Below are positions 5,673 through 62,876 of a stretch of 64,000 nucleotides of DNA, in pieces. Under the pieces are notes generated by a model. The model did not search any database and was not told the DNA's origin. It saw nothing but the letters and a program-made list of their open reading frames with translations. The stretch is from Staphylococcus phage SPbeta-like, in sequence record KT429160.1. One strand, 5' to 3'. The translations under genes and the position numbers were made by a program. Each line of letters opens with the position of its first letter. The stretch's first letter is position 1.

Positions 5673-5699
5673 ATATAAAATCTTTGGAGGATCATATAA

Positions 5700-6140: not shown

Positions 6141-6178
6141 TAAATTATAATAACACAAATGTATGGAGGATAACTTAA

Positions 6179-6538
6179 ATGCCTAAATTTAGTAATGAAT
6201 TAAAAGAAGTTGCTATCCAAGCTGCTCATGGTGCAACTACTACTCAATTTTCAAATAAAGACTTATCGGACGCTGTTCGTAAAAAAATGATCGAGGAATT
6301 AGGTTCAGATACTTTAGATTATTCTACTTATCGCCGCCGCAAACATGATTTATTCGAATTCATCGAAGAAACTGTTGCCCCTATCGTAAATGAACGCACT
6401 GCTGAAATTTTCGGTCAGTTCGCTGAATACAAAAATATCGCTTTCGGTGATCAAAACAAATTCTTCATCGAAGATATTAAATTATTCCCTGTTGCTACTA
6501 TCTCTACTGGTAACGGAAACGTAAAACGTCAACGTTAG
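6179..6538 (+). CDS. major capsid protein, N-terminal part (frame-broken)
   Basis: RBS atggagga; 119-aa ORF ending at TAG 6536-6538; the -1 frame stays open from 6514 and continues into ORF 6562..7179; adding one A to the run at 6522-6525 fuses them (…GNGNVKTSTLDSQELVVPMHTIGAG…). Confidence 0.5.
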   Translation: MPKFSNELKEVAIQAAHGATTTQFSNKDLSDAVRKKMIEELGSDTLDYSTYRRRKHDLFEFIEETVAPIVNERTAEIFGQFAEYKNIAFGDQNKFFIEDIKLFPVATISTGNGNVKRQR

Positions 6539-6561
6539 ATAGTCAAGAATTAGTAGTACCA

Positions 6562-7179
6562 ATGCATACAATCGGTGCTGGTGTATACGAAGAGTTAGTT
6601 CGCTTTTTAGCTGGTCGTACTGATTGGGCTCGTTTAACTGCTCGTTTAGCTGAGTCATTTGTAAATGATATCGCTCAACGTATTGGTGACGCTCTTTACA
6701 AATCAGTTGACTCTGTTGGTTCTACTTACAAAGCTAACGTTAGTGGTAGTAACAGTGAACTTAAAACTAAAGTATTAGAAATCGCTGATCACGTTGAAGC
6801 TGCTAATGGTCAAGCAGTAATCGTTGGTACTAAAGCTGCTCTTCGTAAATTAAAGCCAGAAGATAGCTCAGACTTACAAAAAGGTGCTAAAAACGAAGTT
6901 GGTTACTTCGGTTTTGTTGATGGAGTTGAATGCATTGCTTTACCTCAATTCCACAAAGCTGGTACTGATGAGTTCGGTCTTAAAAACGATGTTATTTTCG
7001 TATTACCAAGCTCAGATGAAAAATTAGTTAAAGTTGTTCAAGACGGTCATTACATCGCTCGTGAAGAAGGCGGATCAGAAGGATATCGCACAGACTTACA
7101 AATGAGCTTAGACGTAATCACTCGTGTTGGTGTAGCTGTTGTTACTGCTGCTCGTTATGGTGCTGTTGAATTAAGTTAA
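6562..7179 (+). CDS. major capsid protein, C-terminal part (frame-broken)
   Basis: 205-aa ORF followed by a strong rho-independent terminator; combined ~333 aa fits an HK97-fold MCP; sits after portal/protease/scaffold. Confidence 0.5.
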   Translation: MHTIGAGVYEELVRFLAGRTDWARLTARLAESFVNDIAQRIGDALYKSVDSVGSTYKANVSGSNSELKTKVLEIADHVEAANGQAVIVGTKAALRKLKPEDSSDLQKGAKNEVGYFGFVDGVECIALPQFHKAGTDEFGLKNDVIFVLPSSDEKLVKVVQDGHYIAREEGGSEGYRTDLQMSLDVITRVGVAVVTAARYGAVELS

Positions 7180-7199
7180 GCTTAATATGATTAAAGTTT

Positions 7200-7228
7200 G
7201 CTCCCTATTAATTTAGGGAGCTTATTTT
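7200..7228 (+). terminator. rho-independent terminator after the capsid gene
   Basis: gctccct-attaattt-agggagc hairpin followed by ttatttt. Confidence 0.7.
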
Positions 7229-7253
7229 ATATGGAGAAAAAGGAGACATTTAA

Positions 7254-7805
7254 ATGGCTATTAAAAAAACTACAACTACTGAGAAATCTACTCAAAAAAC
7301 TACTAAACCTACTGAAAAGAAAACAACTCGTACTGCTAAACCAAAGCGTAAAGAGGTTGATTTATCTCAATCAGTATTAGTTATTAATATGACTCAAGGT
7401 TCATTAACTTATGTAGCTAAAAAAGGTACAGGTTATTTAGAATTAAGTGAATACTTAGATAGTGATTATTTAACTGTTGAAGAGTTAAAAATCATGAAAA
7501 GTTCAGCTAGAGGCATGTTTGATAAAGGTTGGTTGTTTGTTGATGATGAAGATGTAGTTGAATTTCTTGGAATTAAGAAACAAATGGACGCTATCTTATT
7601 ACCTGATGAGTTAGATGACCTATTCGAACTTCCAGCAGATGAACTTAGAGAGCGATTAAAAAGCTTATCACCTTCAGTGAAAGAAACAGTTCATTTAGCT
7701 ATGAAGAAAAAATATGAAGATGGTGAACTAGCAAACGCTCACGTTATTCGTGCTATCGAAGAGTCAGTGAATATTGATAATAACGTTTCAATTCTAAATA
7801 TCTAG
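7254..7805 (+). CDS. hypothetical protein with basic low-complexity N-terminus
   Basis: 183 aa; RBS aaaaaggag upstream; Thr/Lys-rich N-terminus (KKTTTTEKSTQKTTKPTEKK). Confidence 0.35.
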   Translation: MAIKKTTTTEKSTQKTTKPTEKKTTRTAKPKRKEVDLSQSVLVINMTQGSLTYVAKKGTGYLELSEYLDSDYLTVEELKIMKSSARGMFDKGWLFVDDEDVVEFLGIKKQMDAILLPDELDDLFELPADELRERLKSLSPSVKETVHLAMKKKYEDGELANAHVIRAIEESVNIDNNVSILNI

Positions 7806-7822
7806 TTGGGAGGCAAATTCTC

Positions 7823-8257
7823 TTGACAGAATTTACTTTAATTTATGACAAATTTTTATCTAAACTAACAGATTTTTCTTTAGCGAGATTAGATAAAGAC
7901 GTTTTAGAGTCAGATTTACAAGAACGGTTAATAACTGCTCTTTCAGATTTTGCACAGTTACCCGAAGAGAAAACTGAAGTTGATTTAAGTACAAAAACTT
8001 TTACTAATGGTCTAAGTGTAGAAGAACAAAATATCATCGCAACTTTAATGGTTATCAATTATTTAGACAAATATATTTTGTCTGAAGATAATATGAGAAT
8101 TCTATTAAACTCTAAAGACTATAAACAGTATTCACAAGCCGCTTTACTTAAAGAGCTTAAAGCTACTAAATCTGAATATCAATCAGATGTTGACGCTAAG
8201 CTTAATAGTTATAGCTTTAGACAAAAATTCCGAAAGAAAAAGAAAGATGAACAGTAA
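7823..8257 (+). CDS. hypothetical head-tail joining protein
   Basis: 144-aa ORF with RBS ttgggagg upstream, in the head-tail connector region. Confidence 0.3.
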   Translation: MTEFTLIYDKFLSKLTDFSLARLDKDVLESDLQERLITALSDFAQLPEEKTEVDLSTKTFTNGLSVEEQNIIATLMVINYLDKYILSEDNMRILLNSKDYKQYSQAALLKELKATKSEYQSDVDAKLNSYSFRQKFRKKKKDEQ

Positions 8258-8564
8258 ATCTTATACTTTTTATCTCACGGAATTGAAAAATAGAGTTTTC
8301 AAAATATTGCCTTTATGTGAAGAAAAGAATGACTACATAGATAAGTATTTAGAGAATTTGATCATTGAACTCAAAGGGCTTCCTAAAGCATATCCTGAAG
8401 TGTTTGATAGTCAATCTGCTTGGTACGTTAGAGTGTTAAGCTCTTTATTTACTTTCTATGAAGACTTTTCTATCGCAGAATTACATAGTGTTGATGGAGT
8501 TCAAAGAGTAAGACGAATTATTCTATCATTAGTAAATTTGATAGATAAGGAGGTAGGACGTTAA
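8247..8564 (+). CDS. hypothetical head-tail joining protein
   Basis: ATG at 8247 overlaps the previous stop (GATGAACAGTAA); 105 aa; the track's longer 8187 start lies inside the previous gene. Confidence 0.3.
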   Translation: MNSKSYTFYLTELKNRVFKILPLCEEKNDYIDKYLENLIIELKGLPKAYPEVFDSQSAWYVRVLSSLFTFYEDFSIAELHSVDGVQRVRRIILSLVNLIDKEVGR

Positions 8565-8567
8565 ATA

Positions 8568-9233
8568 ATGGACTACTTTGAAAGATATAAAAATATTAAT
8601 ATGCCTTATGGCACAGATTTAAGTTCACATGTCATTAACGCAAGTAAAGACAGTGCTTTGAGAACATTTCTCTCTTCCCCTACTCTATCTGATATTTATG
8701 TTGATAGTATTCCTACTCAGTCAGTTGTAAGTAATTATTCTGGTGACTTTTTTGAGCGTACGTTCTTATTTGAGCCAGACTCAGACTTAGCTAAAGTAGG
8801 TAATTATATTGAACATAGAGGCTATACATACTTAACTATGAAAAGTAATGATGATGATATTTATCCTAACCTACACGCTAAGTTATGCAATGAAGATTTT
8901 AAACTTCCATTAAAAATTACTAAGAAGAAGGTTTCTACTGGTCGTGGTGGTTACACTTATGTTGATCAATTAGAGACCAAAGATATTCCTATTGTGGTTG
9001 ATGTTAAAGGTTACTCAATTGCGGATAATGCTATCTTACCTTTAACTGAAGGCCGAGTAATTATCTATATGAAATACAGTAAGGAATACTTAGAAAAAAT
9101 TAAACTTAACTATGAGTTTGAGTTATTTAATGATAGTTATAAAATCACTGATATTCAAACAGATAACATAATTAATCATCAAGGTTATATTGTATTATCT
9201 GCACAGAAAGTAGTTGAAACAAATGCAACTTAG
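8568..9233 (+). CDS. hypothetical virion protein
   Basis: 221-aa ORF with RBS aggaggtagga upstream. Confidence 0.3.
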   Translation: MDYFERYKNINMPYGTDLSSHVINASKDSALRTFLSSPTLSDIYVDSIPTQSVVSNYSGDFFERTFLFEPDSDLAKVGNYIEHRGYTYLTMKSNDDDIYPNLHAKLCNEDFKLPLKITKKKVSTGRGGYTYVDQLETKDIPIVVDVKGYSIADNAILPLTEGRVIIYMKYSKEYLEKIKLNYEFELFNDSYKITDIQTDNIINHQGYIVLSAQKVVETNAT

Positions 9234-9744
9234 ATATAAAACTTCTGGTCGTGGTGATATCTTACAGAAATTTATTAAGGTAATGGCAAATGATGAACAC
9301 TTATTAAGATTGCTTTACTACAACCCTATTGATGAGAATGGCAATTATATAGAGTTCACAGACGCTTCTTTACCTAATATCACTGAGATGGACGAAGAGA
9401 AAAAAGACCAAATAGTAAATGATTTGATTAGAACGTCTCAAAAGAGTGACGACATAATCGAGATGAAAAAGACAGTTATTTTTGTATTTTATGGTAAATC
9501 GAGACCTAAGTATAACAATCATACTCTTGTAGACAGAGAGATTATTTTTATGATCCTATCTCATAATGATTTCTCATTTGCTGATAGAATAGAGGAAATT
9601 TGTGATAGATTAGATACTTTGTTCGTTAATAAGCATATTGGTGGCATTGGTAGAACAAACATCGGAATATCATTCCCTGTTGAAGCTCCAAAAGAATACC
9701 TTGCTTTTGAACAAAAATACACTATCACTGATAAGCGGATGTGA
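9214..9744 (+). CDS. hypothetical virion protein
   Basis: 176-aa ORF overlapping the previous gene; the internal Met at MANDEHLL may be the real start. Confidence 0.25.
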   Translation: MKQMQLRYKTSGRGDILQKFIKVMANDEHLLRLLYYNPIDENGNYIEFTDASLPNITEMDEEKKDQIVNDLIRTSQKSDDIIEMKKTVIFVFYGKSRPKYNNHTLVDREIIFMILSHNDFSFADRIEEICDRLDTLFVNKHIGGIGRTNIGISFPVEAPKEYLAFEQKYTITDKRM

Positions 9745-9749
9745 TTTAA

Positions 9750-10622
9750 ATGGAAGAGTTATTAGAAAATCTATTTGATGATCAGAGTATTCAAGATAAA
9801 GTTATCTTGAATTTGCCTATCGAAAGTCCATTTGGTGAATTAAAACCACTGAGTATTCATGATTACATGCAACGACTCTCTTCTATTTCAGTAATATCTC
9901 TTAACAAGAAATACTTACTCGCTGAGTATGGTAAAGGTTATCAAGAAGAAACTGGTCAAACTGATAATGAAATTTTCACAATGTTGAAAGACTTGAATGA
10001 AAAATATTCATTATTCTACTTTTTAAGAGAGATGTTCCAAGACCTTCTCCACCACTACATTATTATAACCCGATACGTTAAGTTCTACGATTATCAATAC
10101 GATAAGAAAAACCCTCAATCTAGAAAAGACATTGATGAAAATAGTGATGACGATACACCTTTGAGTGAAAAGGAATTTACTGAGGCTATCTTAGAAAAAT
10201 GTATTCAATTTGTATTTTCATTAGATGATGATCAATTTGAGCTTTATCGTAAATACATATTACAACTTCATGGACAATCTGAACCTAGAGCTTTCTTAAA
10301 CCCTAAGCTTCAACGTAATGAAGAGAGATCTAAAGCTTCAAAGCTTAAAAAGAAGGACTCAACGCCAACTTTATCTACTATGGTTACAAGTTGTGCAGTG
10401 TACATGGGCGTTGATTACTCAGATATTATGAAATGGAATGCTTTACAATTACAACATTCATTCCAACGAATTTCACTATTCATTCAAAATAACGCTACAA
10501 CGTTGTTTGCTACTGTTACTTCTGAAGTCGATTTAGTTAATTGGTCAGAAAATATTACTGACAATGAGAAAAAAGAAGATATGACTTTAGATACTTTCAG
10601 ACAGAATGTAAGTGGAGTTTAG
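9750..10622 (+). CDS. hypothetical virion protein
   Basis: 290-aa ORF in the morphogenesis gene array. Confidence 0.3.
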   Translation: MEELLENLFDDQSIQDKVILNLPIESPFGELKPLSIHDYMQRLSSISVISLNKKYLLAEYGKGYQEETGQTDNEIFTMLKDLNEKYSLFYFLREMFQDLLHHYIIITRYVKFYDYQYDKKNPQSRKDIDENSDDDTPLSEKEFTEAILEKCIQFVFSLDDDQFELYRKYILQLHGQSEPRAFLNPKLQRNEERSKASKLKKKDSTPTLSTMVTSCAVYMGVDYSDIMKWNALQLQHSFQRISLFIQNNATTLFATVTSEVDLVNWSENITDNEKKEDMTLDTFRQNVSGV

Positions 10623-10660
10623 TTAGAATATATATAAATTATTTTAGGAGGAATTGGAAT

Positions 10661-11452
10661 ATGCCTTTATATATCCAAGACACTGCGGACGCAGTATTAG
10701 AACGTAAATCGGACAAATTTGTTATCGCTACTGGTACAACTCAAACTGTTACTTTGAAACAAAAAGTTGACGAAGAAACAGTTAAAGGCGGTATTGGTAA
10801 CGCTGCTCAATTCACAATCAAATCTAACAAAGAGTTAGAAATCACTATGGAAGACGCTTTATTCAACTTCCAATGGTTAGCTGCTACTCAAGGTGTTAAA
10901 GTTGTTAACGACAAATTAGTTGTTAAACGTACTGAGGTTGCTGAAGTAGAAGAAGGTGGAAAAGTTACTTCTGTTAATTCTAAATTAGCTGGTGAGTTAG
11001 TTGTTATCGACACTTATGGTAAAAACGTTAAAGGTAAGTTCACTGCTGGTTCTGCAACTATCTCTGACTTGTCTTCACAAGTTGGTAAAAACGTAACTAT
11101 CGTTACAGAAGAAGAAGTTCAAGGTGAAAAAGTTTCTATTCGTGCTGACCGTTTCGCTGAAAAGTATCGTTTACAATTATTCACTTATGCTTATGACCAA
11201 GATACTGAAGCAATTGCAAAAGACGTATTCTTGACATTCGATAACGTTTCTCCATCTTCTGAGTTTGACTTAAAACTTAAGGCTGGTGATCCATTATCTC
11301 CAGAATTACAATTGAAAGCTACTGCAAACCCAAAAACTAAAGAAATTGGTTCTTGGATGATTGTTGATCATAAAGAAGACGCTGGAGAAACAAATTCGGG
11401 TGCTGTTGTTGCTGGTAGAAGATCTGAAGAGTCAGGTTCACATTTAGGCTAA
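10661..11452 (+). CDS. major tail (tube) protein
   Basis: 263 aa; very strong RBS ttaggagg; rho-independent terminator immediately downstream; directly precedes the chaperone/TMP genes. Confidence 0.55.
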   Translation: MPLYIQDTADAVLERKSDKFVIATGTTQTVTLKQKVDEETVKGGIGNAAQFTIKSNKELEITMEDALFNFQWLAATQGVKVVNDKLVVKRTEVAEVEEGGKVTSVNSKLAGELVVIDTYGKNVKGKFTAGSATISDLSSQVGKNVTIVTEEEVQGEKVSIRADRFAEKYRLQLFTYAYDQDTEAIAKDVFLTFDNVSPSSEFDLKLKAGDPLSPELQLKATANPKTKEIGSWMIVDHKEDAGETNSGAVVAGRRSEESGSHLG

Positions 11453-11467
11453 TAATTTAGTCATAAG

Positions 11468-11498
11468 AGTGGGAGATTAGTTTCTCCCCTCTTTTTTA
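11468..11498 (+). terminator. rho-independent terminator after the major tail gene
   Basis: gggaga-ttagtt-tctccc hairpin followed by ctctttttt. Confidence 0.65.
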
Positions 11499-11535
11499 TT
11501 TATCCAAATTTATAGAATAAAAGGAGAATTTTATC

Positions 11536-12093
11536 ATGAAAATAAACGACAATAACGATAAAAATGTCGAACAAAATGCTGTTGTTGACTTAAAAAAGGT
11601 CTTAGAAATGGCTAAATCTTATGATGAAATTGAAAGATACACTTTATCAAACGGTGAAGACATTGAATTCTATCCCCACTTCTCTCGTACAAAGATTAAA
11701 GAAATCATTGAAGAGTATAAAGGATATTTAATTTCTGAAGATAAAGATGATATGAAATTCATGGATATGGTTTCTAAAGATGATGTAAGCTTAGTCCTTT
11801 TCTGGTACTTCTTAGCTGTTAAAAAATTCACTCATTTTGGTGAGTCTATGAAACGTATTAAGAAAGTTAAATCTTTAGCTCCTTATTACAATGCATTATT
11901 AGAAACGGGTATCTTAGAAGAAATTTGTAATGACGCTTTTGCTTATGAAGAGTTATCAAAAGTTACTGAAATGTTTGCAAAAGAAGCTGCAATTAATGTA
12001 ACTGCTAATGAATTTGTAAACAAATATGAAGATGAAATTGAAGTAGCTCGTGAAAAATTTGCTAACACTTATTTAAACAAGAGTGAAGATTAA
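11536..12093 (+). CDS. putative tail assembly chaperone
   Basis: 185-aa acidic protein (RBS aaaaggagaa) between the major tail and tape-measure genes. Confidence 0.35.
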   Translation: MKINDNNDKNVEQNAVVDLKKVLEMAKSYDEIERYTLSNGEDIEFYPHFSRTKIKEIIEEYKGYLISEDKDDMKFMDMVSKDDVSLVLFWYFLAVKKFTHFGESMKRIKKVKSLAPYYNALLETGILEEICNDAFAYEELSKVTEMFAKEAAINVTANEFVNKYEDEIEVAREKFANTYLNKSED

Positions 12094-12581: not shown

Positions 12582-13598
12582 ATGGCAATCGAGAAAAACA
12601 TGCTGAGAGAAAGAGCCAAAAAGCTTCCGACAATTACAGATGAAATGTGGGAAAAGGTACATCCTATTTACAAGGAACTTTTAAGTGAGTATTTAGGTTC
12701 AGTAGATTTATCGAGAGACACTAAAAAACAATATACTTCAGCATTGAAACAATTTGGTTGGTTTGTTGCTGATAGTTTAAACAATAAACCCCTATTCAAA
12801 TTAAAGAAACGTGACGCATTGCGTTATATGAACTATTTAAGAGAAGACCGTAAGATGTCATCATCTGGAATTAACTTAAAGAAATCTGCTGTATCTGCTT
12901 TCTGTCAATGGATAGAAAACTATATCGCTGATGACTATGAAGATGAAAATGGAGACCTAGTTTTTGAAACATTTCGTAATTTCATGACAGGCTTACCACC
13001 AGTTGTAAAAAATCAAGTATACGATAAGAAGAAAGTTACATTCGAAGAGTATCAAGAAATGATGAAAGCTCTAAGAAGTGATGAAGATTATTTAGGTATG
13101 GCTTGGTTAGCTACTGCATTTAATGTTGGTGCAAGACGCAGCGAAATTATACAATTTAAAACATCTTTATTCGATCATGAGTGGAATGAAGAAGGAAACT
13201 TCTTAATGTCTCATAACGTTCGTGGTAAAGGTCGTGGTGAAGATGGTAAGATACTTCAATTTATGATCAATGATGAAGCACTTAAATATATGAAGCTTTG
13301 GGTAGAAAAACGTGGATATGAAGACGAATACATCTTTACAGTTGGAAATGAGAACACTCATAGGCAAATGAGTAAGTCTTGGGCTGATTATTTCTGCGAG
13401 CATACTCTATCTCATATTTTAGGAAGACGTGTTAACCCTCATATCTTTAAAGCTAGTTGTGTAACCTATCTATTAGAAGTTAAAAAGGTTGATATTAAAC
13501 ACGTATCTAAATTAGTGGCACATCATGAGTCAGTTGAAACTACTCAAATATATGATTTAAGAGACTCTGAAGAAGAGAGAAATTCTATCTTTAGTTAA
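12582..13598 (+). CDS. tyrosine recombinase / integrase-family protein (XerC/D-like)
   Basis: 338 aa; C-terminal catalytic-domain motifs (GARRSEI, HIFKASCVTYLL, AHHESVETTQIYD with the terminal Tyr) typical of tyrosine recombinases; sits inside the tail module as yomM does in SPbeta. Confidence 0.7.
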   Translation: MAIEKNMLRERAKKLPTITDEMWEKVHPIYKELLSEYLGSVDLSRDTKKQYTSALKQFGWFVADSLNNKPLFKLKKRDALRYMNYLREDRKMSSSGINLKKSAVSAFCQWIENYIADDYEDENGDLVFETFRNFMTGLPPVVKNQVYDKKKVTFEEYQEMMKALRSDEDYLGMAWLATAFNVGARRSEIIQFKTSLFDHEWNEEGNFLMSHNVRGKGRGEDGKILQFMINDEALKYMKLWVEKRGYEDEYIFTVGNENTHRQMSKSWADYFCEHTLSHILGRRVNPHIFKASCVTYLLEVKKVDIKHVSKLVAHHESVETTQIYDLRDSEEERNSIFS

Positions 13599-13694: not shown

Positions 13695-16600
13695 GTGGCA
13701 AGTGATTTTAATATAGGTATATTATCTACCTTAGAGATAGACTCTAGCTCCTCAAGAAAGAAGATTAACGACACACTTAAAAATATTGAAGCAAATATTA
13801 ATAGCATTAAAGCAGACTTAGAAGTTTCAGATACAAAGAAATCAGAAAATAATGCTATAAAAAGTGCAAACAACGTAATCAGAAACATCAATTCAAACGG
13901 TAATTTAAAGAAATTAAATGTTGAACTAGATGTAAACTTAACAAAAAGTAGACAAAACATTCAAAGAGCATTATCTACTCTATCAAAAGATTTTAAGAAT
14001 AAGAAAATTGATATTGAAGTTAATGCTAAAGCTAATAAAAATTCAATCGGACAAGTTAAGAATTCTATTTCTAAAGGTGCAAGTCAGCCACTAGAAATTA
14101 AAGAGTCCCCTAGTAGTAGAAGCACTAGTAGAGATATTAAAGAACAGCAGTCTTTAATGACAGGTTTAGCAAATTCTTATAAGAACTTAGATGATTTAAC
14201 AAGAGCTTTAAATACAAGTACATTTGAAGGGCTTAGAAAAACTGTAAAAGAAATTAAGAACGCAGATAATTCTCTTAAAAGTTATCAAGTTACTTTAGAA
14301 CGTGTTAACCAAGAAGGTAAAAAATTAGGCTCTCAAAGATTTGATTATACCCCTTCTGCAAATGGTTTGAAGTTAAACAAAACTCAATTAACTGATCAAA
14401 CAGATAAAGCTCGTAAAGAAGAAAATGCTGCTATTAATAAATTATTAGAAAATGAAGTTTCTAAGTATGATCGTTTATTGAATAAAGGTAAAATTGATAT
14501 TAAACAACATCAAACTTTACTTCAAACTCTTAGACAAATTACTAATGAGAAATCAAAAGCTAACCAATTTAATAGAACTGATTTCAATAGAGTAGCAAAA
14601 GCTGCTGCTGATGAAGCAAAAGAATATCAATATCAAAATGATATGCTTCGAAAGAAATTAGCTTTAACTTCTCAAATTGAGCGTATTGAAAACAGAATGG
14701 CTGCTACAATTGATAAGCAACAAACAAATGCTTTGAAAAATCAATTGAATTCTTTAGGTAATAATAGAACACCATTCGGTAAAGAAGCAGCTTTCCATAT
14801 GAACCAAATTCAAGACAAGGTTCGTCAAATCTCTGCTGAAGCTGAAAGAGCAACTAGAACTCAGTTAAGTTTTGTTGATCAATTCAGAGAAGCAATGACA
14901 AAATTCCCAGTTTGGATGGGTGCTACTACCCTATTCTTCGGTGCCATAAATGGTGCTAAAGAAATGCTTGATGTAATTACTGAAATTGATGGAAAAATGA
15001 TTACTCTTGCAAAAGTTACTGGTGATGACAATGCACTTCAACAAACATTTATTGACGCAAATAATGCTGCTTCTCAATTCGGACAGACATTAGGAAGCGT
15101 ATTAGATGTATATGCAGAATTCGCTAGACAAGGTGTTAAAGGTAATGAGTTATCTCAATTCTCAAATGCAGCATTAATTGCTGCTAACGTTGGTGAGATT
15201 GACGCTAAACAAGCTTCTGAATATTTAACTTCTATGTCTGCTCAGTGGGAAACGACTGGAAACCAAGCTATGAGACAAGTTGACTCACTCAACGAAGTTT
15301 CCAATAAATATGCTACAACTGTTGAAAAGTTAGCACAAGGTCAAGCAAAAGCTGGCTCTACTGCTAAATCAATGGGACTTACTTTTGATGAAACTAATGG
15401 TATTATTGGTGCATTAACAGCTAAGACTAAGCAATCTGGGGACGAAATTGGTAACTTTATGAAAGCCACTTTACCTAAACTTTATAGTGGTAAAGGTAAA
15501 TCAACTATTGAAGGCTTAGGCATTAGTATGAAAGATGAAAATGGACAATTAAAATCTGCCATTTCTCTTTTAGAAGAAGTTTCTCAGAAAACTAAAAACT
15601 TAGAAAAAGACCAAAAAGCCGCTGTTATAAATGGCTTGGGTGGAACATACCACTACCAACGTATGCAAGTATTATTAGATGATTTATCTAAAACAGATGG
15701 CTTATATAAACAAATTAAAGAAAGTTCCGAAAGTTCAGCTGGCTCTGCATTACAAGAGAATGCAAAATACATGGAGTCAATTGAAGCTAAAGTTAACCAA
15801 GCAAAAACAGCATTCGAACAATTCGCATTAGCTGTTGGTGAAACATTTGCTAAATCAGGAATGCTTGATGGTATCAGAATGGTTACTCAACTTTTAACTG
15901 GTTTAACTCATGGAATTACTGAATTAGGCACAACTGCTCCGATTTTCGGCATGGTTGGTGGTGCTGCCTCATTAATGAGTAAGAATGTTAGAAGTGGTTT
16001 TGAAGGTGCTAGAAGTAGTGTTGCTAATTATATTACTGAGGTAAATAAATTAGCTAAAGTTAACAATGCTGCTGGTCAAGTTGTTGGACTTCAAAAAGTT
16101 CAAACTGGTACAGCTTCACAACTTCAGTTTAATAAAAATGGTGAATATGATAAAGCTGCTTCACAAGCAAAGGCTGCTGAACAAGCAACTTACCAATTCT
16201 CTAAAGCTCAAAAAGATGTATCAGCTAGTGCTATGATCGCTTCAGGTGCAATCAACAAAACAACTGTGGCTACCACAGCAAGCACTGTTGCCACTCGTGC
16301 TGCTACACTTGCAGTTAATGGTTTAAAATTAGCCTTTAGAGGCTTGTTGGCTGCTACTGGTGTCGGGTTAGCAATAACTGGTGTTTCTTTTGTACTGGAA
16401 AAAGTTGTAGGTAGTTTTAATGCTGCAAGTCAAGCTGCTGAACAATATAAACAAAAACAAGAGCAAACGAAGCAAGCAATAGCTTCTATGAGTAATGGTG
16501 AAATTAATTCACTTATTAGTAGTTACGATAAACTACAACAAAAAATGAATTCTGGTAGTGCATTTAATACAGCGGAAGCTGAGAAATATAAAGAAGTAAC

Positions 16601-52483: not shown

Positions 52484-53648
52484 CCTTTATGTTCAGTTAA
52501 GGTCGTTAATCTTAACCCGTCAATTTTGACAGCTTATACTTTCATATAAGAGCAGACTATATCACAACTTACTTTGAAGTAAGCCATCTCCCGCTTCCAC
52601 TCACTTGAGTGTACTTCCCGCAACGGAATAGTCGTTGAACTCTCCTTTTAAATGTATGATGTAATTAATAATTAAAATAAATTCTAGAATATTCTTCATG
52701 ACTTAATTTCTCGATTTTATGTATATTATATTTTCTTAATAAATGAGGTAATTGGTTGACTAGAACTCGCTGAGCTTGTGAATGTGTTAAGTCAAACTCT
52801 TGAGCATAAGTTTTGATAGTATCATAATATTTAATATCGTTATTCTTATATGTTATTTTATAAGGGTTTAAAAACTGATAATCTATTTTATGATCAAAGG
52901 CTATTTTTCCTACAATCGTATCTTTCGGTATTTCTTCTACTATTTCTAGATTTAATATATTAAGAAAGCTACCTGATTTAACATCTTTTTCTGCCCTACT
53001 TCTTCCTATTTTAAAAGCTTTAGCCATCTTTGAACATGAGCCATAATAGCTGTACAACTCTCCATTTGGAAATGAGGCTTTAATTATTTTACTAGCCTTA
53101 CTAACTGAAGCTCCTATATGATATCCATGTTTAGTATTATATGAGATTGTTACCCACTCCAGATTTGATACATCATTGTTGTCTTTTATATTATCTTTAT
53201 GGTTTACAACTGGACAGTTAGAAGGGTTAGGAATAAATGTTTCTGCCACCATTCTATGTACTCTTGCAGTCGTTAATGTTCCATTCAGATTAGTTAAGCC
53301 TACTATCAAATATCCATCTTTATCTTTTCTAGTTTTTTTATTGATCCAACGATTATGACCACCGTGCCATCCTCTTATTCTTCCAAGATTACTTACTAGG
53401 TAATTCGGGTTATTAGGATAACTCAACCATAACTCGTTTAATTTTAATTTCTTACCTTCATGTATTATTGCTACTGGTTTCAAATTCATTTACATCATCC
53501 TTTTTAAGTATTTCATACACTTAAAAGGCTTAGCTGCGTATTACCCAATCTTTAAGATTATTACGCTTCGGTACTTAAAGCTCTAAGGGTTTCTTCGCAA
53601 TTCAAGAGATTTATCAATAATATTAATTTATTATCGCCCTAATCAATA
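52484..53648 (-). other. group I intron in nrdE carrying an HNH homing endonuclease ORF
   Basis: 1165-nt insertion between conserved NrdE codons (…IAP | TQSISY…); exon 1 ends in U; insert ends in G (omega-G) right before exon 2; contains a free-standing HNH ORF. Confidence 0.7.
52665..53489 (-). CDS. HNH homing endonuclease (intron-encoded)
   Basis: 274 aa; NUMOD/AP2-like N-terminus; HNH_3 motif (…ARVHRMVAETF…VVNHKDNIKDNNDVSNLEWVT…) typical of phage intron HEGs such as I-HmuI and SPbeta YosQ. Confidence 0.75.
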   Translation of the reverse strand: MNLKPVAIIHEGKKLKLNELWLSYPNNPNYLVSNLGRIRGWHGGHNRWINKKTRKDKDGYLIVGLTNLNGTLTTARVHRMVAETFIPNPSNCPVVNHKDNIKDNNDVSNLEWVTISYNTKHGYHIGASVSKASKIIKASFPNGELYSYYGSCSKMAKAFKIGRSRAEKDVKSGSFLNILNLEIVEEIPKDTIVGKIAFDHKIDYQFLNPYKITYKNNDIKYYDTIKTYAQEFDLTHSQAQRVLVNQLPHLLRKYNIHKIEKLSHEEYSRIYFNY

Positions 53649-56552
53649 AGGTGCGATTGACAATCTATATGAGTTATATAAACCATTCTTATCAACTTCT
53701 CTAGCTAACCGTTGCCAGTCTTCTTTAGTAGGAATGTAAATACCTTTAAAAATCTCTTTAACTTTCGGAGTAATTGGTTCTACATTCTTAGTTACACGAT
53801 TGTTTTTATAGAAGTATTCTCCAAACTCTTTTCCATCTTTAGCTTTATAATCTGTTTGATCAAAGCCATAGAATTTGTCATTTCTTTCAACTGCAATCTT
53901 CATTGACTCGTCTAATGAATAATAGTCCATCATCATGCAGTAAACATTTAGCAAATCAAGTGACTCTTCTGAACCATATCTAATTTTGTTTTTAGCACAC
54001 ATACTATGGAATGACATTACACCTAAACCAACTGCTCTATTGTTTTTATTTGCTTTATGAACTGTTGGTAAGTGTTCGATACGTGAATTGTTAGCTACAA
54101 ACGTTAAAGCTCTCATTCCAGTACGAATTGACTCTTCAATTTCTTTCTCTTCGATTGATTTAACCATATTAAGAGAAGCTAAGTTACAGATAATATCTTG
54201 ACCTAATTCATCTGGTTCGTAGTAATCTTTGATATCTGAAACATGCATGTATTGGAAGATCTCAGTACAATTTCCTGTCACAATTCCATTGAAGATTAAT
54301 GAGTGATAATCTTCTTGTGTGGTATCATAAACATCTTCTTTACCAATATATTTAATTTCAGTAATTTCGGCAGTAAAATCATGTTTCGGTTTTCTACTAT
54401 TTGGTCGCAATGTTAAGTTAAAAATCATTGCTTTATGTATATCTTTAGGTTTCAAAGCTACTTCTTTCATAAACAAATCTCTTGAGCTTCTGTCTTGAAT
54501 GCTAATTTTATATGTATTTTGAACTTTGTACTCTTTCATGCCGCCATTACCATCTGGTAATAAGCTTATCTCTCTCTCACTTTGATATATTGATGAATAC
54601 ACACCGAGATTTAACAGTTGCATTTGAATATCTCTTGCTAATTCTTCACTGATTGTTGTCAATTCGATGCTCATTGCTTTATATTTTTCATTTGTATTTA
54701 CGCAAGCATCCATTTGATATAAGCCAGATAAATAAGCAGTTATTGTATTTTTTGTAGCATTTTTTAATAAGTTTGGAAATCTCAATTTAGTCTCTCTGTT
54801 AAATCCAAATCTAGATAATATTTTGTATAGCTCAACACTGCTAATTGTTAATTTTTGTAGTTCTTTATTTTCAACAAATTTAGGATGTAAGTTTGCACTA
54901 TGATGTAAAAACTCATTTTTATTTCTATATTTATCTATAATATAAGCTACTAATTCTTCAATAGTTTCTTTAAGATATTGCTTCTCGTGATATAGATAAA
55001 TTTTAACTGAACCGTCTCTTCCAAATGTCCCATCTCCAGCGATAAGCCCCATCAAGAATGCTAATTTTGGATCATGAAAATCTCCATAACTTCCATTACC
55101 AGATTGAACTAATAGCTTATCTCCTACCTCTAATTGATTTAACTGAACTTTTTCAATTGAGTCGTTTATTTTTCTATAATATTTGTGCCATTCGGTAGAT
55201 TTAATTTTAAACCCTTGTTTAGTAGTAATTTCATAAATTTCAGCTTGTTTAGCTGTAAGTTGCATTGGAATAGCATTTACGATATCAGTACCTTTATTGT
55301 TAATATCATAATTCTTAGTTCTATTATCAATTACTACTTTCAAATCTTCTTGACTTTCATACAAGTCTTTGGCTTTCACATAACCTTTTTCAGTTAATAA
55401 CTCAGTGTCTCCAGTAACACATAAGTTAGACATTTTGATTTCACCAAGCTCATTTAAAGCATGGTTTTTGTTTGCGTTATCTTTATACATGATATAAGGA
55501 TAACCAGATTGTAATTGAATTTGAGCGATCAGATTTAACATTTCTCTAGCATTAATTTTATGTTTGATAACATTTTCATTCTCAACGAACTTGTCATACC
55601 AATCATTAATATTAATGTCATCTAAGATTACATCTTTACCGAATTCTTCTTGAATTGAGTATGGTTCAAACATATATAAGTCTTTGTCTTCTTTTGCTAA
55701 ATCAAAGAATAATGAAGGAACAATTAAACCGATTGAAAGTGTAGCTAAACGTGTATCTTCATCTGCATTAACTTTCTTAGTGTTTAATAACTCAATTACA
55801 TCTGAGTGGAAAATGTTTAAGTAAGCAGCACCAGCTCCAGCACGTTGACCTAATTGATCAGCATAACTAACTTCACCTTCAATTAATTTAGCAACTGGTA
55901 CGATACCTTTACCTACATTCTTAACACCTTTTAATGTAGCACCACGACCTCTTAATCGTGTTAAGTTAACTGCTACACCACCAGCAATCTTACTAGCTTG
56001 TGATACTTGACTTCTAATGAAGTTGATAGAGTTTAATGTGTCATCCATTGTGAATAAATAACAAGAAGCTAATTCTCCTCGTTGCTTACGACCAGCATTT
56101 AAATATGTTGGAGTTGCTGTTTGTACTGTTTGAAGTGTATGTGCTTTAATGTATCTTTTAGCTAAATCAACATCTCCACCAGCTAAGTACAGAGAAACGA
56201 TTACGTTATGTTGTTCAAAGTCTTCAAGCCATTGCGACTTATCTCTAGTTTTTAATGCGTATGTATCATAGAATTTGCTTGCTGCCATGAAGCTTTGGAA
56301 CTCAAAGCCGAATGAATAAGCATAATCTAAAAGCTCTAATAATGTTTCTTCACTGTAATCTTTAAATACATCAATATAGTAATCTTCTTCTACTAAGTAA
56401 CGTAATCTTGCAATCTGATTTGAGAATTGCTTTGTTTTACTCTTAATGTGTTCTAAATATAACTTAATTGCTTCTTTGTCTTTTGATAAGCTAAGCTGTC
56501 CTAACTCATCTCTTCTCATGATTTCATTGTTTTTTTCGATCCATTTACTCAA
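53649..56552 (-). CDS. nrdE: NrdE exon 1 (includes in-frame intein)
   Basis: TTG start with RBS GGGAGG; class I RNR alpha motifs; catalytic-site SNL-C-TEI split by an intein; ORF runs into intron-encoded …Y* after IAP. Confidence 0.8.
54270..55421 (-). other. intein (384 aa) with LAGLIDADG homing endonuclease, inserted at the catalytic Cys of NrdE
   Basis: Extein KMSNL | CVTGDTELL… … HSLIFNGIVTGN | CTEIFQ: Cys at intein position 1, C-terminal GN followed by +1 Cys; two LAGLIDADG motifs (LMGLIAGDGTF, LSGLYQMDACV). Confidence 0.8.
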
Positions 56553-59115: not shown

Positions 59116-59577
59116 CTATTGCAAAGAATAAATACAGTAACGGGTTAGCTCCTTCACTTGTTTTCTTTCTAATAAAGTGAATGATTTGATCAATGTAGCT
59201 AACACAATTGAAACTGTCGCCACTGTCTGACTTACTTCCAATGATAGATGACTAAAGATTACAAGTGCTAATAGTATGTATAGTAATGAGAATATGATCG
59301 CAATTGGCTTTTCCAATCTCTTAAAGTTGAGCCAAATTACAATAATGAGTGCTACACCAGCGTTAATAAACTGTCCTAAATAGATATACCATTCAGCATT
59401 ACCAGTTCGTAGTACATTTAATAAGCTAAACAAAGTTGAAAAGCTTACTAAGTACCAAAACATAGATGATATTCCTGTAAGATTTTTGGAATAAAATATT
59501 GATTTTAATTGATTATAATACGCAGTCACAAATATCAAAACTACTAGTAAATTAAGGGTTAAAAGTAAAGCTGCCAT
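59116..59577 (-). CDS. membrane protein
   Basis: 153 aa with 4-5 hydrophobic helices; ATG overlaps the upstream stop (TAATG). Confidence 0.35.
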   Translation of the reverse strand: MAALLLTLNLLVVLIFVTAYYNQLKSIFYSKNLTGISSMFWYLVSFSTLFSLLNVLRTGNAEWYIYLGQFINAGVALIIVIWLNFKRLEKPIAIIFSLLYILLALVIFSHLSLEVSQTVATVSIVLATLIKSFTLLERKQVKELTRYCIYSLQ

Positions 59578-59807
59578 TATTGTCCATGCTCCTCTAACGT
59601 TTGTTTCGCTACTTTGTTACTTAATAGCAACGTAGTTAAGACACTATATCCAATTATTGATTGATAAATTACTTCTTTTTGAGAGATAGCAGTCTCTACT
59701 AAATTTGTTCTTATCAACATAAAGATTTCAAAGAAACCAAATGTTAAAGTAAAGAATATAGCTCCAAAGAATATTGAACCTATGATTGTTAAACAAAGTC
59801 TTTTCAA
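59577..59807 (-). CDS. small membrane protein
   Basis: 76 aa with 2 TM helices; may be the frame-shifted N-terminus of the downstream membrane protein. Confidence 0.3.
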   Translation of the reverse strand: MKRLCLTIIGSIFFGAIFFTLTFGFFEIFMLIRTNLVETAISQKEVIYQSIIGYSVLTTLLLSNKVAKQTLEEHGQ

Positions 59808-60391: not shown

Positions 60392-61399
60392 TTACCAATT
60401 AAATGCTTTTTTCAACGATAAGAACACTGTTTTAAGATGTAACTGATTGATCACTCCACCTACAACATCATAAGCTGTACTAGGTTTGAAGTTACATGCC
60501 TCGACATGTTTATATAATTCATCTGGCATTTCTTGTAATCTCCAATATTCTCTAGGAGAATAGAACCTTAATACACCATCATTTATTGTTCCTAAAGTCT
60601 TACCACGCATGATTGTTTGACAAGCTTTAACCTGTACTCGTCCTCTTCTAGCTTTAGAAGTAACATAAGCTAAGTCAATTCCGTCTCCATTATTTGCGTA
60701 TAAATATCCTTTCTTAGTACCATTTTTAATTTTATAACCGTTCTCATCTTTACCAAGTATAAGATGACTATGTATATGTTCGTTTGCGATATCTGGTTGA
60801 TCATTATTTTCTAAGTATGTTTCTAAATGTTTAGGTTCCCTTGTTAAATCAAGAAACTCAAATTTACCATTGTCTATATCTTTTCTAATAGATATTGAAA
60901 ATAAACGTTTTCTCTTTTGAGCTGAACCTAATTCATGTGCATTTAGAACTTTATAATATGTATTGTAATTTAAGCTATCAAGCTCATCCATATAATTTTG
61001 GAAGTTAGGCATGTTTTTTCTACTTATTGCGTCTGGAACATTTTCCCAAACTATCCACTTAGGCTTACATTCTTCCATTATCCTGACTGCTTCCCACATC
61101 AGAGCTGATCGAGTATCTGAACCTTTAAGTCCTCCACCTTGCTTACCAGCCCTTGTGAAGCTTTGACATGGACTACCGAATACTAGTAAGTCTACATCTA
61201 AATCTTTTGCTGAGACGTTTCTAACATCTCCAAGATTTTCGCTTTCTTTTTTATTATGTAATTTACAAAATAGTTGAGTAGCAGTTTTTCTTGTTTCACT
61301 AAAACCAACAATTTCATGTTCAATTCCTAAAGTGTTTAGGGATATTGAGAAGCTGCCTACTCCACTAAAAAGTTCTAATACTTTAATCAAGTATGTCAT
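60392..61399 (-). CDS. DNA C5-cytosine methyltransferase-fold enzyme (candidate carboxymethyltransferase)
   Basis: 335 aa; motif I LFSGVGSF (FxGxG), motif IV GSPCQSF (catalytic PC), motif VI WENV, motif VIII QKRKR; C-terminal motif-X region reads AYDVVGGVI rather than canonical GN(S/A)V. Confidence 0.8.
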   Translation of the reverse strand: MTYLIKVLELFSGVGSFSISLNTLGIEHEIVGFSETRKTATQLFCKLHNKKESENLGDVRNVSAKDLDVDLLVFGSPCQSFTRAGKQGGGLKGSDTRSALMWEAVRIMEECKPKWIVWENVPDAISRKNMPNFQNYMDELDSLNYNTYYKVLNAHELGSAQKRKRLFSISIRKDIDNGKFEFLDLTREPKHLETYLENNDQPDIANEHIHSHLILGKDENGYKIKNGTKKGYLYANNGDGIDLAYVTSKARRGRVQVKACQTIMRGKTLGTINDGVLRFYSPREYWRLQEMPDELYKHVEACNFKPSTAYDVVGGVINQLHLKTVFLSLKKAFNW

Positions 61400-61404
61400 C
61401 CCTC

Positions 61405-62100
61405 CTACTTAACTGCAATTATTCCTACAAAGTTGTTCCATTTAAACCAAGTATCTATATCCTTAAAACCAGCTTTTTCAAGCATTCTTTTATTTTGTTT
61501 TAAGGTTAAAGGCTTTAATACTCCTCTAATTGATTGAGATTTCTTGATCACTTCTTCATAGGTCAAACCATTCTCAAGTTTAAAATCATGATATATTTGG
61601 TTCATGATTTCGTGTGATTGTACAAATTCTCCATTTACTTTCTCAACAAGGATAAATGCTCCACCTTTATTCAAGCCTTGATAAACATTTTTTATTGTCT
61701 TTTCTCTATCCTCAATATTTATAAATTGCAAAGTTAAAATAGAAGTAATGTATGAAGCGTTTGTGAATTTAAAATCTTGCACGTCTTCAGATATTATTTT
61801 GATATTATCACTATCAGCGTCATTCATTGCCACTTGGTTCATATAAATAGAATTATCAATTCCAATATAATTAGCATTACGTTTTAGAATATTGCTCATG
61901 CCTTTTAATAAATTACCAGTCGAGGAGCCTATATCATAGACATTTGTATTTTCCTCAACGAAAAAACCGCCGATAATTTTAACAATCTTATGTATCTCTT
62001 TATAGAATGGTACAGATTTTTCTACGTGTTCATTAAATTCATTAGCTGTTTGCTCTGATTTAAATGTCCACTGAAAAGGGTTATAATTCATCTTCCTCAT
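61405..62100 (-). CDS. cmoA: CmoA-like carboxy-S-adenosyl-L-methionine synthase (class I SAM-MTase fold)
   Basis: 231 aa; near-collinear to E. coli CmoA as recalled: WTF…FNEHVEKSVPFY (CmoA [22 protein letters not shown]), VYDIGSSTGN (VYDLGCSLGA), YIGIDNSIYM (IIAIDNSPAM), ILTLQFINIEDREKTIKNVYQGLNKGGAFILVEK ([35 protein letters not shown]), C-terminal …YHDFKLENG…MLEKAGF…WFKWNNFVGIIAVK. Confidence 0.6.
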   Translation of the reverse strand: MRKMNYNPFQWTFKSEQTANEFNEHVEKSVPFYKEIHKIVKIIGGFFVEENTNVYDIGSSTGNLLKGMSNILKRNANYIGIDNSIYMNQVAMNDADSDNIKIISEDVQDFKFTNASYITSILTLQFINIEDREKTIKNVYQGLNKGGAFILVEKVNGEFVQSHEIMNQIYHDFKLENGLTYEEVIKKSQSIRGVLKPLTLKQNKRMLEKAGFKDIDTWFKWNNFVGIIAVK

Positions 62101-62272
62101 CTCCGAACCAAGCTTGTAATATTTCTAAGTTTTCTGTATCAATGTACAAATTTAAATCATGATATGTATAATGTCCTACAACATTTCTATCTGGAAAACC
62201 TAAGTCTTCTCCATTCCAATCTGCTTGCCAGTGTAATTTACTCCAGTCAAAGTCCTCTGGATTATCAAACAA
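62081..62272 (-). CDS. small acidic hypothetical protein
   Basis: 63-aa ORF overlapping both neighbours; operon-style packing. Confidence 0.3.
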   Translation of the reverse strand: MFDNPEDFDWSKLHWQADWNGEDLGFPDRNVVGHYTYHDLNLYIDTENLEILQAWFGDEEDEL

Positions 62273-62876
62273 TTAGGCCACTTCCAAACAAATCTAATCT
62301 ATGTAAAACTTGATCCCAAGTAATAAAACCTTCACCATTAGTAGCTTCCAGTACCATTCCATATACAAATTGGTTAGTAGAGAATTCAGCACGGTCTGGA
62401 TCAGTATAAGGTTTTCCGTGTCCTTGTCTAATATCTGAACAGTAACATAGAACTGTTTTATTTAAGATTTTTTCTTGCTTGTAGATTTCGTCTTGAATTA
62501 AATCATAAGCTTCTGTTTGATCTCCATATACATCATGTTTTATTTCTTCAGATAAGACACTCAATCTATCAATTGTTTTTTGAGCTTGTTTCTTCATTCC
62601 AATAATAATTCCGAGCTCAGAAATTGTTCCTAAACCTTCATTTAAAACATCAAGAACATAGATATCTGATTTTTCCATTGCGGTAAAATCATTCTTTAAA
62701 ATTCTCTCGGCCAAACCTTCTTGAACTGCATTAGACTTATCATTAATAGATTTGTCTTGGTGAGGGCTATAAGGTTTTACTCCCTCAATTGCTTCAACTT
62801 GGTTATGTTGTTTTTCTCTATAATCAACCATTGCTTCATTAAGAATATGGCCAGCTAGATAAATTACTTTCTCCAT
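62265..62876 (-). CDS. nucleoside 2-deoxyribosyltransferase-family protein (NDT/Rcl-like)
   Basis: 203 aa; N-terminal KVIYLAGHI and central DIYVLDVLNEGLGTISELGIIIGM match the NDT-family blocks (…IYFGAG…, …DI.L.V…ED.G.G.ELGYA…). Confidence 0.5.
   Translation of the reverse strand: MEKVIYLAGHILNEAMVDYREKQHNQVEAIEGVKPYSPHQDKSINDKSNAVQEGLAERILKNDFTAMEKSDIYVLDVLNEGLGTISELGIIIGMKKQAQKTIDRLSVLSEEIKHDVYGDQTEAYDLIQDEIYKQEKILNKTVLCYCSDIRQGHGKPYTDPDRAEFSTNQFVYGMVLEATNGEGFITWDQVLHRLDLFGSGLIV

Follow-up and report, generated by a model that had tools for sequence, protein, structure and literature searches.

A probable DNA 5-carboxymethylcytosine module in an SPbeta-like Staphylococcus phage, with a cytosine methyltransferase homologue that has glycine in place of the motif-X arginine

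Why should a temperate Staphylococcus phage carry a homologue of CmoA, the Escherichia coli enzyme that makes carboxy-S-adenosylmethionine (Cx-SAM), directly upstream of a C5-cytosine DNA methyltransferase (MTase) homologue? The two genes lie in a four-gene cluster at positions 60,392 to 62,876 of Staphylococcus phage SPbeta-like (KT429160.1; the 64,000 nucleotides (nt) analysed are hereafter called the window), together with a nucleoside 2-deoxyribosyltransferase-like (NDT-like) gene and a small acidic open reading frame (ORF). We consider it likely that the pair is a two-gene DNA-modification module that writes 5-carboxymethylcytosine (5cxmC). By homology to validated enzymes, the CmoA homologue would convert host S-adenosylmethionine (SAM) and prephenate into Cx-SAM. 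The coupled MTase homologue would flip out its target cytosine, attack C6 with Cys78 and, as genomic linkage and changes in its cofactor pocket suggest, move the carboxymethyl group to C5. The resulting 5cxmC in phage DNA would shield it from host restriction. In the mechanism that we propose, a glycine at motif X would open the pocket, and Arg265 of the target-recognition domain (TRD) would bind the carboxylate instead.

A system of this kind was published by Yang et al. (Nat Commun, December 2025; PMC12783734), who found that Synechococcus phage S-B43 writes 5cxmC. Its phage CmoA makes Cx-SAM with a kcat of 2.33 s-1, the C5-MTase homologue SpCmoX carboxymethylates cytosine C5 in GC motifs, and CmoY, an Asn-synthetase-like ligase, turns 5cxmC into a glycine amide (PMC12783734). 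Formation of 5cxmC by the phage CmoA and the C5-MTase homologue was observed in vitro, in E. coli and in virions (PMC12783734). SpCmoX takes Cx-SAM only; in its structure (8YF3), Arg350, at the position of M.HhaI Asn304, binds the Cx-SAM carboxylate, and R350N is inactive (PMC12783734). A protective role of the mark in the window phage is plausible because 5cxmC alone blocks HhaI cleavage (PMC12783734). The CmoX survey in that paper, which was filtered for SPPC and R350, returned 5,615 candidate sequences, and the paper makes no mention of Staphylococcus phages, non-Arg variants or NDT (PMC12783734). The literature library searched contained no later paper on phage 5cxmC systems. A reading of the window made from the sequence alone (hereafter the sequence-only reading) had taken a natural CmoA-MTase pair to be genuinely novel, a claim overtaken by the December 2025 publication.

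The window MTase matched Pfam DNA_methylase (PF00145, E=1.3e-50) and TIGR00675 dcm (E=1.1e-48), and it carries the canonical motifs I, IV, VI and VIII (FSGVG, GSPCQ, WENV and QKRKR). However, motif X reads GGVI instead of the canonical GN(S/A)(V/I), and GN is present in all 64 of its nearest relatives outside the clade described below. The second glycine of GGVI, Gly315, aligns with Asn304 of M.HhaI, Arg350 of SpCmoX and Asn374 of M.MpeI, giving the window MTase a non-canonical cofactor pocket. Both the motif set and the deviant GGVI had been pointed out in the sequence-only reading, and GGVI proved more informative than any other feature of the locus. The AlphaFold2 (AF2) model was of high confidence (predicted local distance difference test, pLDDT, 91.6; predicted template modelling score, pTM, 0.90) and placed GGVI in the loop preceding the C-terminal helix. 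PF00145, the catalytic residues and the AF2/Foldseek comparison all give the window MTase the C5-MTase fold expected of a CmoX. The nearest solved folds by Foldseek were those of M.MpeI and M.HhaI (template modelling score, TM, 0.76-0.79). SpCmoX 8YF3 appeared only at rank 21 (TM 0.63, 17% identity; ~17-27% identity overall), and the window MTase is therefore of a different lineage from the published CmoX. It also departs from the first CmoX signature, reading FGSPCQ rather than SPPC (S95 P96 P97 C98).

The clade of the window MTase was defined by a search of 5.8 billion proteins, with motif X read from alignments. All 36 full-length clusters at >=54% identity carry YDV[VI]GG[VAML]IN..H, and every relative at <=49% identity to the window MTase has the canonical GNS. 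Gly315 is invariant in 39/39 clade sequences; so are, across the clade, Cys78, Glu119, Arg163, Arg165 and the cofactor-binding FxGxG motif. This GG clade is discrete, a small and separate solution of phages of Staphylococcaceae and their relatives. Neither CmoA nor the GG-clade alignment picked up clade members when species-representative genomes were searched; the matches were distant archaeal and clostridial MTases and told nothing of host range.

Linkage to CmoA separates the GG clade from its canonical (GN-type) relatives. We examined 13 GG loci, comprising 10 distinct protein clusters (the window, L004, L005, F1/L001, L006 and L035-L042; L numbers are our locus identifiers). A CmoA homologue was adjacent to the MTase or one gene off in 13/13 of them. 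Neither CmoA nor CmoY was found in the 5-8 kb flanks of any of the 28 GN-type loci compared (Perkons, L007-L030 and L043-L045), so that the co-occurrence of the two genes, on which the sequence-only reading had staked the pairing, is upheld. Gene orders in the GG loci (CmoA-CmoY-MT, CmoY-CmoA-MT and CmoA-MT) and phage backbones (SPbeta-like with PolC and ligase, Sextaecvirus, and a PolA/RecJ type) differ, implying that the linkage has outlived rearrangement. CmoY is intact in seven of the 13 loci (six clusters: L001, L006, L036, L037/38, L039 and L040), split into two ORFs in one (L035) and lacking in five, which represent three lineages (window type, L041 and L042). The complete 90-kb phage vB-SscS-F1 (F1) encodes CmoA, a CmoY homologue (35% identity, E=6e-34 to SpCmoY) and a single C5-MTase, which is of the GG type. 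In a reverse search of 80 IMG/VR loci collected with a CmoA profile, 69 of the 70 classifiable neighbouring MTases were of the SPPC...GR type and none was GG.

The other half of the pair is predicted to be a Cx-SAM synthase. As the sequence-only reading had stated, it is collinear with E. coli CmoA over its full length (PDB 4GEK, E=5e-34, residues 10-231). It matched TIGR00740 over profile positions 14-239 of 239 (E=2.8e-45) and phrog_4752 (E=5.8e-81), with BioC as the runner-up family at merely E=3.5e-10. All seven E. coli CmoA contacts to the SAM moiety (Y39, D62, G64, S66, D89, D117 and F137; PMC3663124) are kept (Y33, D56, G58, S60, D82, D106 and F126), and the cofactor contact K187 is likewise conserved. 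The carboxylate end of the site is the part that differs: Arg199 of E. coli CmoA, which makes a salt bridge to the carboxymethyl carboxylate (PMC3663124), is replaced by Ser188, with Arg192 at +4. The biochemically validated SpCmoA has a similar arrangement, with Glu at the 199 position and Arg at +4, and an Arg at +4 occurs in 10/10 CmoAs linked to GG-type MTases and in 71/80 other phage CmoAs. Furthermore, E. coli N132 is Ile in the window homologue, a change common to SpCmoA and most phage CmoAs. Because these departures are common to the highly active SpCmoA and most phage CmoAs, they are probably the phage-type norm rather than a sign of a different function.

A CmoA homologue in a different setting was seen in L058 (IMGVR_UViG_3300029483_000193, 2980-11669). 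This protein (5956-6750) is 43% identical to the window's and has the phage-type shifted Arg, and no DNA MTase adjoins it. Around it lie genes for two saccharopine-dehydrogenase-like proteins, two ABC exporters, two membrane methyltransferases of the ICMT/PEMT type and polytopic membrane proteins. Such a cluster resembles a Cx-SAM-using bacterial pathway for a small molecule or a lipid, and its classification as viral is probably a binning error.

How could an MTase with glycine at motif X recognize Cx-SAM? Comparison of the 39 GG with 64 GN sequences gave six clade-specific invariant residues: Gly315, Asp311, Val312, His321, Ala124 and Arg265. His321 lies in the first turn of the C-terminal helix. 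Arg265 lies in the TRD, three residues past a conserved T[LI], and is invariant in 39/39 GG sequences; its equivalent is Thr, Cys, Gly or Ala in the GN relatives and Gln in a sister clade (the SR clade) that has a common TRD scaffold. The SR clade, found via the closest non-GG CmoA (L057), has the motif X RP[SA]R[SG]V; BLASTP aligns the Arg265 stretch gap-free, and CmoA/CmoY clusters were present in 3/3 loci examined (L057, L137 and L138). When all sequences built on the scaffold were classed by regular expression, which mis-parsed a few of them (e.g., Perkons and L057) and agreed with the alignments on the main classes, 39 combined a motif X Gly with a TRD Arg, 24 a motif X Arg with a TRD Gln, 69 a motif X Asn with a TRD Thr, Ala, Cys or Gly, and two a motif X Asn with a TRD Arg. 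This covariation leads us to propose that the carboxylate-binding Arg has been relocated and that Arg265 may replace the missing motif-X Arg.

Work on other C5-MTases bears on both parts of the proposal. In M.HhaI, Gln82, Tyr254 and Asn304 ring the transferable group, and N304A opens space, weakens AdoMet and S-adenosylhomocysteine (AdoHcy) binding and methyl transfer, and favours larger groups (PMC3526304). Saturation mutagenesis of M.MpeI N374 showed cationic side chains to be best for Cx-SAM, with E45D adding to the effect (PMC13288465, PMC12015181). Since the alignment of the TRD loop to M.HhaI is ambiguous, an equivalence of Arg265 to the Tyr254 loop is at most suggestive. Another candidate for the compensating cation, Arg37 (at the M.HhaI Asp42 position; Arg in 90% of the clade), was rejected as the prime one, since it is Leu in three clade members and is located where the pocket holds the adenosine. 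We hold tentatively, at somewhat less than an even chance, a broader proposal: that the GG clade comprises independently evolved natural DNA carboxymethyltransferases without a motif-X cation, in which Asn-to-Gly opens the pocket and TRD Arg265 supplies the carboxylate Arg; that CmoY-less staphylococcal SPbeta-like prophages end at bare 5cxmC; and that expression in lysogens could mark the chromosome of human-associated Staphylococcus.

Several observations weigh against assigning 5cxmC formation to this MTase. It has Gly315, and so no cationic residue, at the Asn304/Arg350 position that forms the second CmoX signature, and it keeps the Gln of PCQ where SpCmoX has Ser; the 8YF3 structure and R350N mutant (PMC12783734), together with the M.MpeI N374 mutagenesis, make the motif-X cation key to Cx-SAM use. 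Arg265 maps to M.HhaI L251 by MAFFT and near F259/A260 by phmmer and ungapped extension. The CmoA homologue scored 154.9 bits, below the NCBIfam equivalog cut-off of 193.3 for TIGR00740. The co-occurrence counts for GG MTases and CmoA are not phylogenetically independent and partly reflect shared ancestry. In two cases a second MTase is present (Arg type in L006, GN type in L037/38), so another enzyme could be the carboxymethyltransferase there. In addition, the CmoYs of F1 and its close relatives have the PP-loop SGGNGS rather than SGGxDS, with the Asp lost (L001:5700-6515, L006:3496-4296, L037:7183-8001, L040:7186-8001 and L035:7185-8001), and this non-canonical form makes it less compelling to argue from CmoY to a supplier of 5cxmC. 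SGG[TV]DS is kept in the CmoYs of L036, L039, L057, L137 and L138 and in SpCmoY.

The window MTase might then be an ordinary SAM-dependent 5-methylcytosine (m5C, 5mC) enzyme with a degenerate motif X, and CmoA either a drain on SAM directed at host SAM-dependent defences or mere cargo. Its fold is nearest to M.HhaI and M.MpeI, PCQ, ENV and QxRxR are canonical, no Arg or Lys stands at the N304 position, and CmoA-mediated SAM depletion was raised as a possibility by Yang et al. (PMC12783734). Against this stands the contrast between GG and GN-relative loci in CmoA linkage (13/13 vs 0/28). The link to CmoY, a ligase specific for 5cxmC, requires a carboxymethyltransferase, and F1 has no C5-MTase other than its GG-type one. 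Asn-to-Gly would also be a poor adaptation for a SAM enzyme in a SAM-depleted cell, because M.HhaI N304A weakens AdoMet binding and methylation. We therefore rate this explanation as rather unlikely; the sequence-only reading had raised it too, and the CmoA/CmoY linkage of the clade disfavours it while the missing Cx-SAM Arg continues to speak for it. We judge it improbable, too, that the glycine pocket is promiscuous and that the enzyme writes both 5mC and 5cxmC, in proportions governed by the SAM:Cx-SAM ratio resulting from phage CmoA activity. Space-opening mutations do admit bulkier groups and do not abolish methylation (PMC3526304), wild-type M.MedI (Asn) weakly carboxymethylates, and engineered K/R variants keep SAM activity (PMC13288465, PMC12015181). 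On the other hand, SpCmoX uses Cx-SAM alone (PMC12783734), and the invariant, clade-specific Arg265, His321, Asp311 and Val312 suggest a pocket that was selected and not merely loosened.

The remaining two explanations take one member of the pair out of DNA modification. The altered motif X could mean that the MTase homologue is catalytically dead and serves as a DNA-binding or regulatory protein, but the invariance of Cys78, Glu119, Arg163, Arg165 and FxGxG in the clade and the confident fold prediction make this very improbable. Alternatively, CmoA could feed the synthesis of 5-carboxymethoxyuridine (cmo5U) at tRNA position 34 as in E. coli, with the MTase unrelated to it; PHROG and RefSeq do label phage CmoA homologues 'tRNA methyltransferase'. 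A tRNA role is nevertheless unlikely, since no CmoB homologue was found in the window, in the complete F1 genome or in any GG locus, and in Gram-positive bacteria TrmR, with SAM, forms 5-methoxyuridine (mo5U) in place of cmo5U (PMC6599085). With cmoA translationally coupled to the MTase gene as well, we regard a tRNA function with an unrelated MTase as the least credible explanation, with next to no probability. The proposal that CmoA and the C5-MTase together write 5cxmC, first made from the sequence alone, thus gains from the published phage precedent and the clade-wide CmoA linkage, and is weakened by an MTase without the published Cx-SAM-determining Arg.

If the pair does write 5cxmC, the mark is probably the end product in the window phage, with no handle for amide hypermodification, because tblastn found no CmoY homologue in the whole 64-kb window; the ligase is a common but not an obligatory companion of CmoX. 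Phages of the window type have probably lost CmoY, to judge from synteny, since the L035 copy is broken and the L040 copy is intact at the same place. The SGGNGS motif and the split or absent CmoY in the staphylococcal group suggest decay of the ligase step or an altered chemistry.

Paired C5-MTases were observed in several phages. An Arg-type and a GG-type enzyme occur together in L006 (4319-6187), a GR-type and an SR-type enzyme in L138 (2146-4474), and a GG-type enzyme with a GN-type MTase ~1 kb downstream in L037/38 (L037:8001-10906). Such pairs suggest that a single phage may have more than one target specificity or may mark its DNA with both 5cxmC and 5mC.

The organization of the locus is consistent with joint expression of the pair. 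On the minus strand, the order 5' to 3' is the NDT-like gene, the 63-aa acidic ORF, the cmoA homologue and the C5-MTase gene, within an extended series of minus-strand genes in a window with ~30% GC content (Table 1). The ORFs were confirmed at the positions given by the sequence-only reading, as was the tight, co-oriented packing that it described: the NDT-like gene overlaps the small ORF, the small ORF overlaps cmoA, and the stop codon of cmoA and the ATG of the MTase gene are 5 nt apart. Because this stop and start share TAGGAGGGATG with a strong Shine-Dalgarno ribosome-binding site, the sequence implies translational coupling of cmoA and the MTase gene. No terminator-like hairpins were seen within the four-gene cluster in a sequence scan, and a promoter scan was uninformative, with 26 sites against 24.8 expected. 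The called cmoA start is the ATG at 62100 (MRKMNYN); a second ATG 9 nt downstream, at 62091, is preceded by GAGGAAG. The latter is probably the true start, as the N termini of homologues align with the second Met.

Table 1. Features of the CmoA-MTase locus and its neighbours, in window coordinates
Feature	Position	Strand	Basis or remark
NDT-like gene	62265..62876	-	PF05014 E=9e-9; phrog_1817 E=2.7e-77; co-transcribed neighbour
Small acidic ORF, 63 aa, isoelectric point (pI) 4.05	62081..62272	-	Overlaps both neighbours; no family match
cmoA homologue, 231 aa, predicted Cx-SAM synthase, phage type	61405..62100	-	TIGR00740, PDB 4GEK, phrog_4752
C5-cytosine MTase homologue, GG clade, 335 aa; predicted DNA cytosine-C5 carboxymethyltransferase (non-canonical CmoX)	60392..61399	-	
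Junction of cmoA stop, ribosome-binding site and MTase start, TAGGAGGGATG	61397..61407	-	Read off the sequence
MTase codons Gly314-Gly315 (motif X GG)	60455..60460	-	Alignments
MTase codon Arg265, TRD; hypothetical candidate for a relocated cation that binds the Cx-SAM carboxylate	60605..60607	-	
MTase codon of catalytic Cys78 (motif IV, GSPCQ)	61166..61168	-	Aligns with M.HhaI Cys81
CmoA codon Arg192, shifted Arg typical of phage CmoAs	61525..61527	-	

The sequence-only reading had also counted the NDT-like enzyme as part of the system, and this did not hold up. The protein scored 35.9 bits with PF05014, above the gathering threshold of 28.8, with the match limited to its N-terminal 97 residues. 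Homologues of the NDT-like gene and the small ORF adjoin each other in L035, L037/38, L040, L041 and F1, where the pair lies ~20 kb from cmoA. Neither was present in the flanks of L006, L036 and L042, and L039 has the small ORF beside the GG MTase without NDT. We therefore rejected the NDT-like protein as a component of the CmoA pathway, its linkage not being conserved. The NDT-like gene and the small ORF are a separate conserved pair, whose position beside cmoA in the window follows from the gene order common to SPbeta-like phages of staphylococci. The small ORF, which matched no family in Pfam, NCBIfam or PHROG, is conserved at 42-71% identity across staphylococcal phages (the F1 homologue lies at 59475-59639) and probably stands outside the core of the module.

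The closest public phage is the temperate Staphylococcus phage SPbeta-like 2 (MT955612; host S. haemolyticus), with 99.9% identity to window positions 1-25000 and 97.6% identity over the matched 60% of positions 39001-64000. It covers just 30% of the module query. We considered and rejected a presence/absence polymorphism, since the apparent absence of the module is an assembly artefact: MT955612.1 (L055) has three 100-N scaffold gaps (13372-13471, 13820-13919 and 14075-14174) right over the MTase/CmoA/NDT locus. The module is thus hidden and unannotated in the sole closely related public phage record. Elsewhere in the window (53643-56552, minus strand), the gene for the large subunit of a class Ib ribonucleotide reductase harbours an intein in its reading frame (Intein_splicing, E=1.3e-10), which includes a homing-endonuclease domain of the LAGLIDADG type (LAGLIDADG_3, E=1.4e-14). 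In L035, L042 and F1, this large-subunit gene is broken by free-standing HNH endonuclease genes rather than by an intein.

If the GG clade does carry out DNA carboxymethylation, 5cxmC is not limited to the Arg-type CmoX catalogued in 2025, and surveys based on SPPC and R350 undercount it. Such surveys would miss phages of Gram-positive bacteria, among them prophages found in the clinically relevant Staphylococcus haemolyticus, S. chromogenes and Mammaliicoccus. A glycine that opens the pocket and a charge from the TRD would be a second natural structural answer to Cx-SAM recognition, of use in engineering DNA carboxymethyltransferases for methylome sequencing (DM-Seq and CMD-seq) and occupancy mapping. 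The GN, SR and GG sister clades on one TRD scaffold would form a natural mutagenesis series for cofactor selectivity. Repeated loss of CmoY would provide natural cases in which the carboxyl handle is the end product, allowing evasion of staphylococcal restriction by bare 5cxmC to be tested. Modification-dependent type IV enzymes, which attack DNA carrying 5mC, are among the restriction barriers of staphylococci.

Among enzymes with known or altered pockets, M.HhaI Q82A/Y254S/N304A resembles the GG clade in that a shrunken N304 side chain opens the pocket and disfavours methyl transfer; it differs in using synthetic propargylic cofactors and having no charge-pairing residue, and the window MTase retains Gln82 (PMC3526304). 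The engineered carboxymethyltransferases M.MpeI N374K, M.MedI N377K and M.CviPI Y205K/R are, like the GG clade, altered at the motif X Asn position of the pocket. However, they gain activity by a cation there, whereas the GG clade has Gly and an invariant TRD Arg (PMC12015181, PMC13288465). Many GG-clade members also have Asp for the ribose-binding Glu, like the activity-enhancing E45D, whereas the window MTase keeps Glu.

Natural relatives extend the comparison. ORF138 of Psychrobacillus phage Perkons, a canonical MTase 47% identical to that of the window, has the same length and motif order and a homologous TRD, but it has a GNS motif X and Cys at the Arg265 position and is without nearby CmoA or CmoY. 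The SR clade is a second clade of CmoA/CmoY-linked MTases in (pro)phages of Bacillota (L057, L137, L138 and P0121-P0146) and reads GFPCQ. SR enzymes (L057 and the Lederbergia citrisecunda prophage L137) and GR enzymes (MT1 of L006 and MT1 of L138) reside in the same kind of CmoA/CmoY clusters as the GG enzymes. The SR clade has the TRD scaffold of the window MTase (RRGR...T[LI]), and the CmoAs of these Arg-type loci are 48-49% identical to the window's. The Arg-type Bacillota enzymes differ in that Arg stands at the N304 position and Gln takes the place of Arg265; without SPPC, they too are probably missed by the published filter.

The closest functional parallel is the S-B43 system. As in the window, CmoA adjoins a C5-MTase homologue and has the shifted Arg, and 5cxmC with restriction evasion is the expected outcome; as in the window's relatives, an Asn-synthetase-like CmoY (271 aa) lies in the cluster. 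The MTases differ in SPPCS and Arg350 versus GSPCQ and Gly, and the SPPC and R350 filter would therefore miss the window MTase. S-B43 is a cyanomyovirus with CmoY, whereas the window represents a temperate SPbeta-like phage of a Gram-positive Staphylococcus without it. The concept is thus already known in kind; what is new is a CmoA-linked C5-MTase clade that lacks both CmoX signatures and occurs in staphylococcal temperate phages, here without the ligase.

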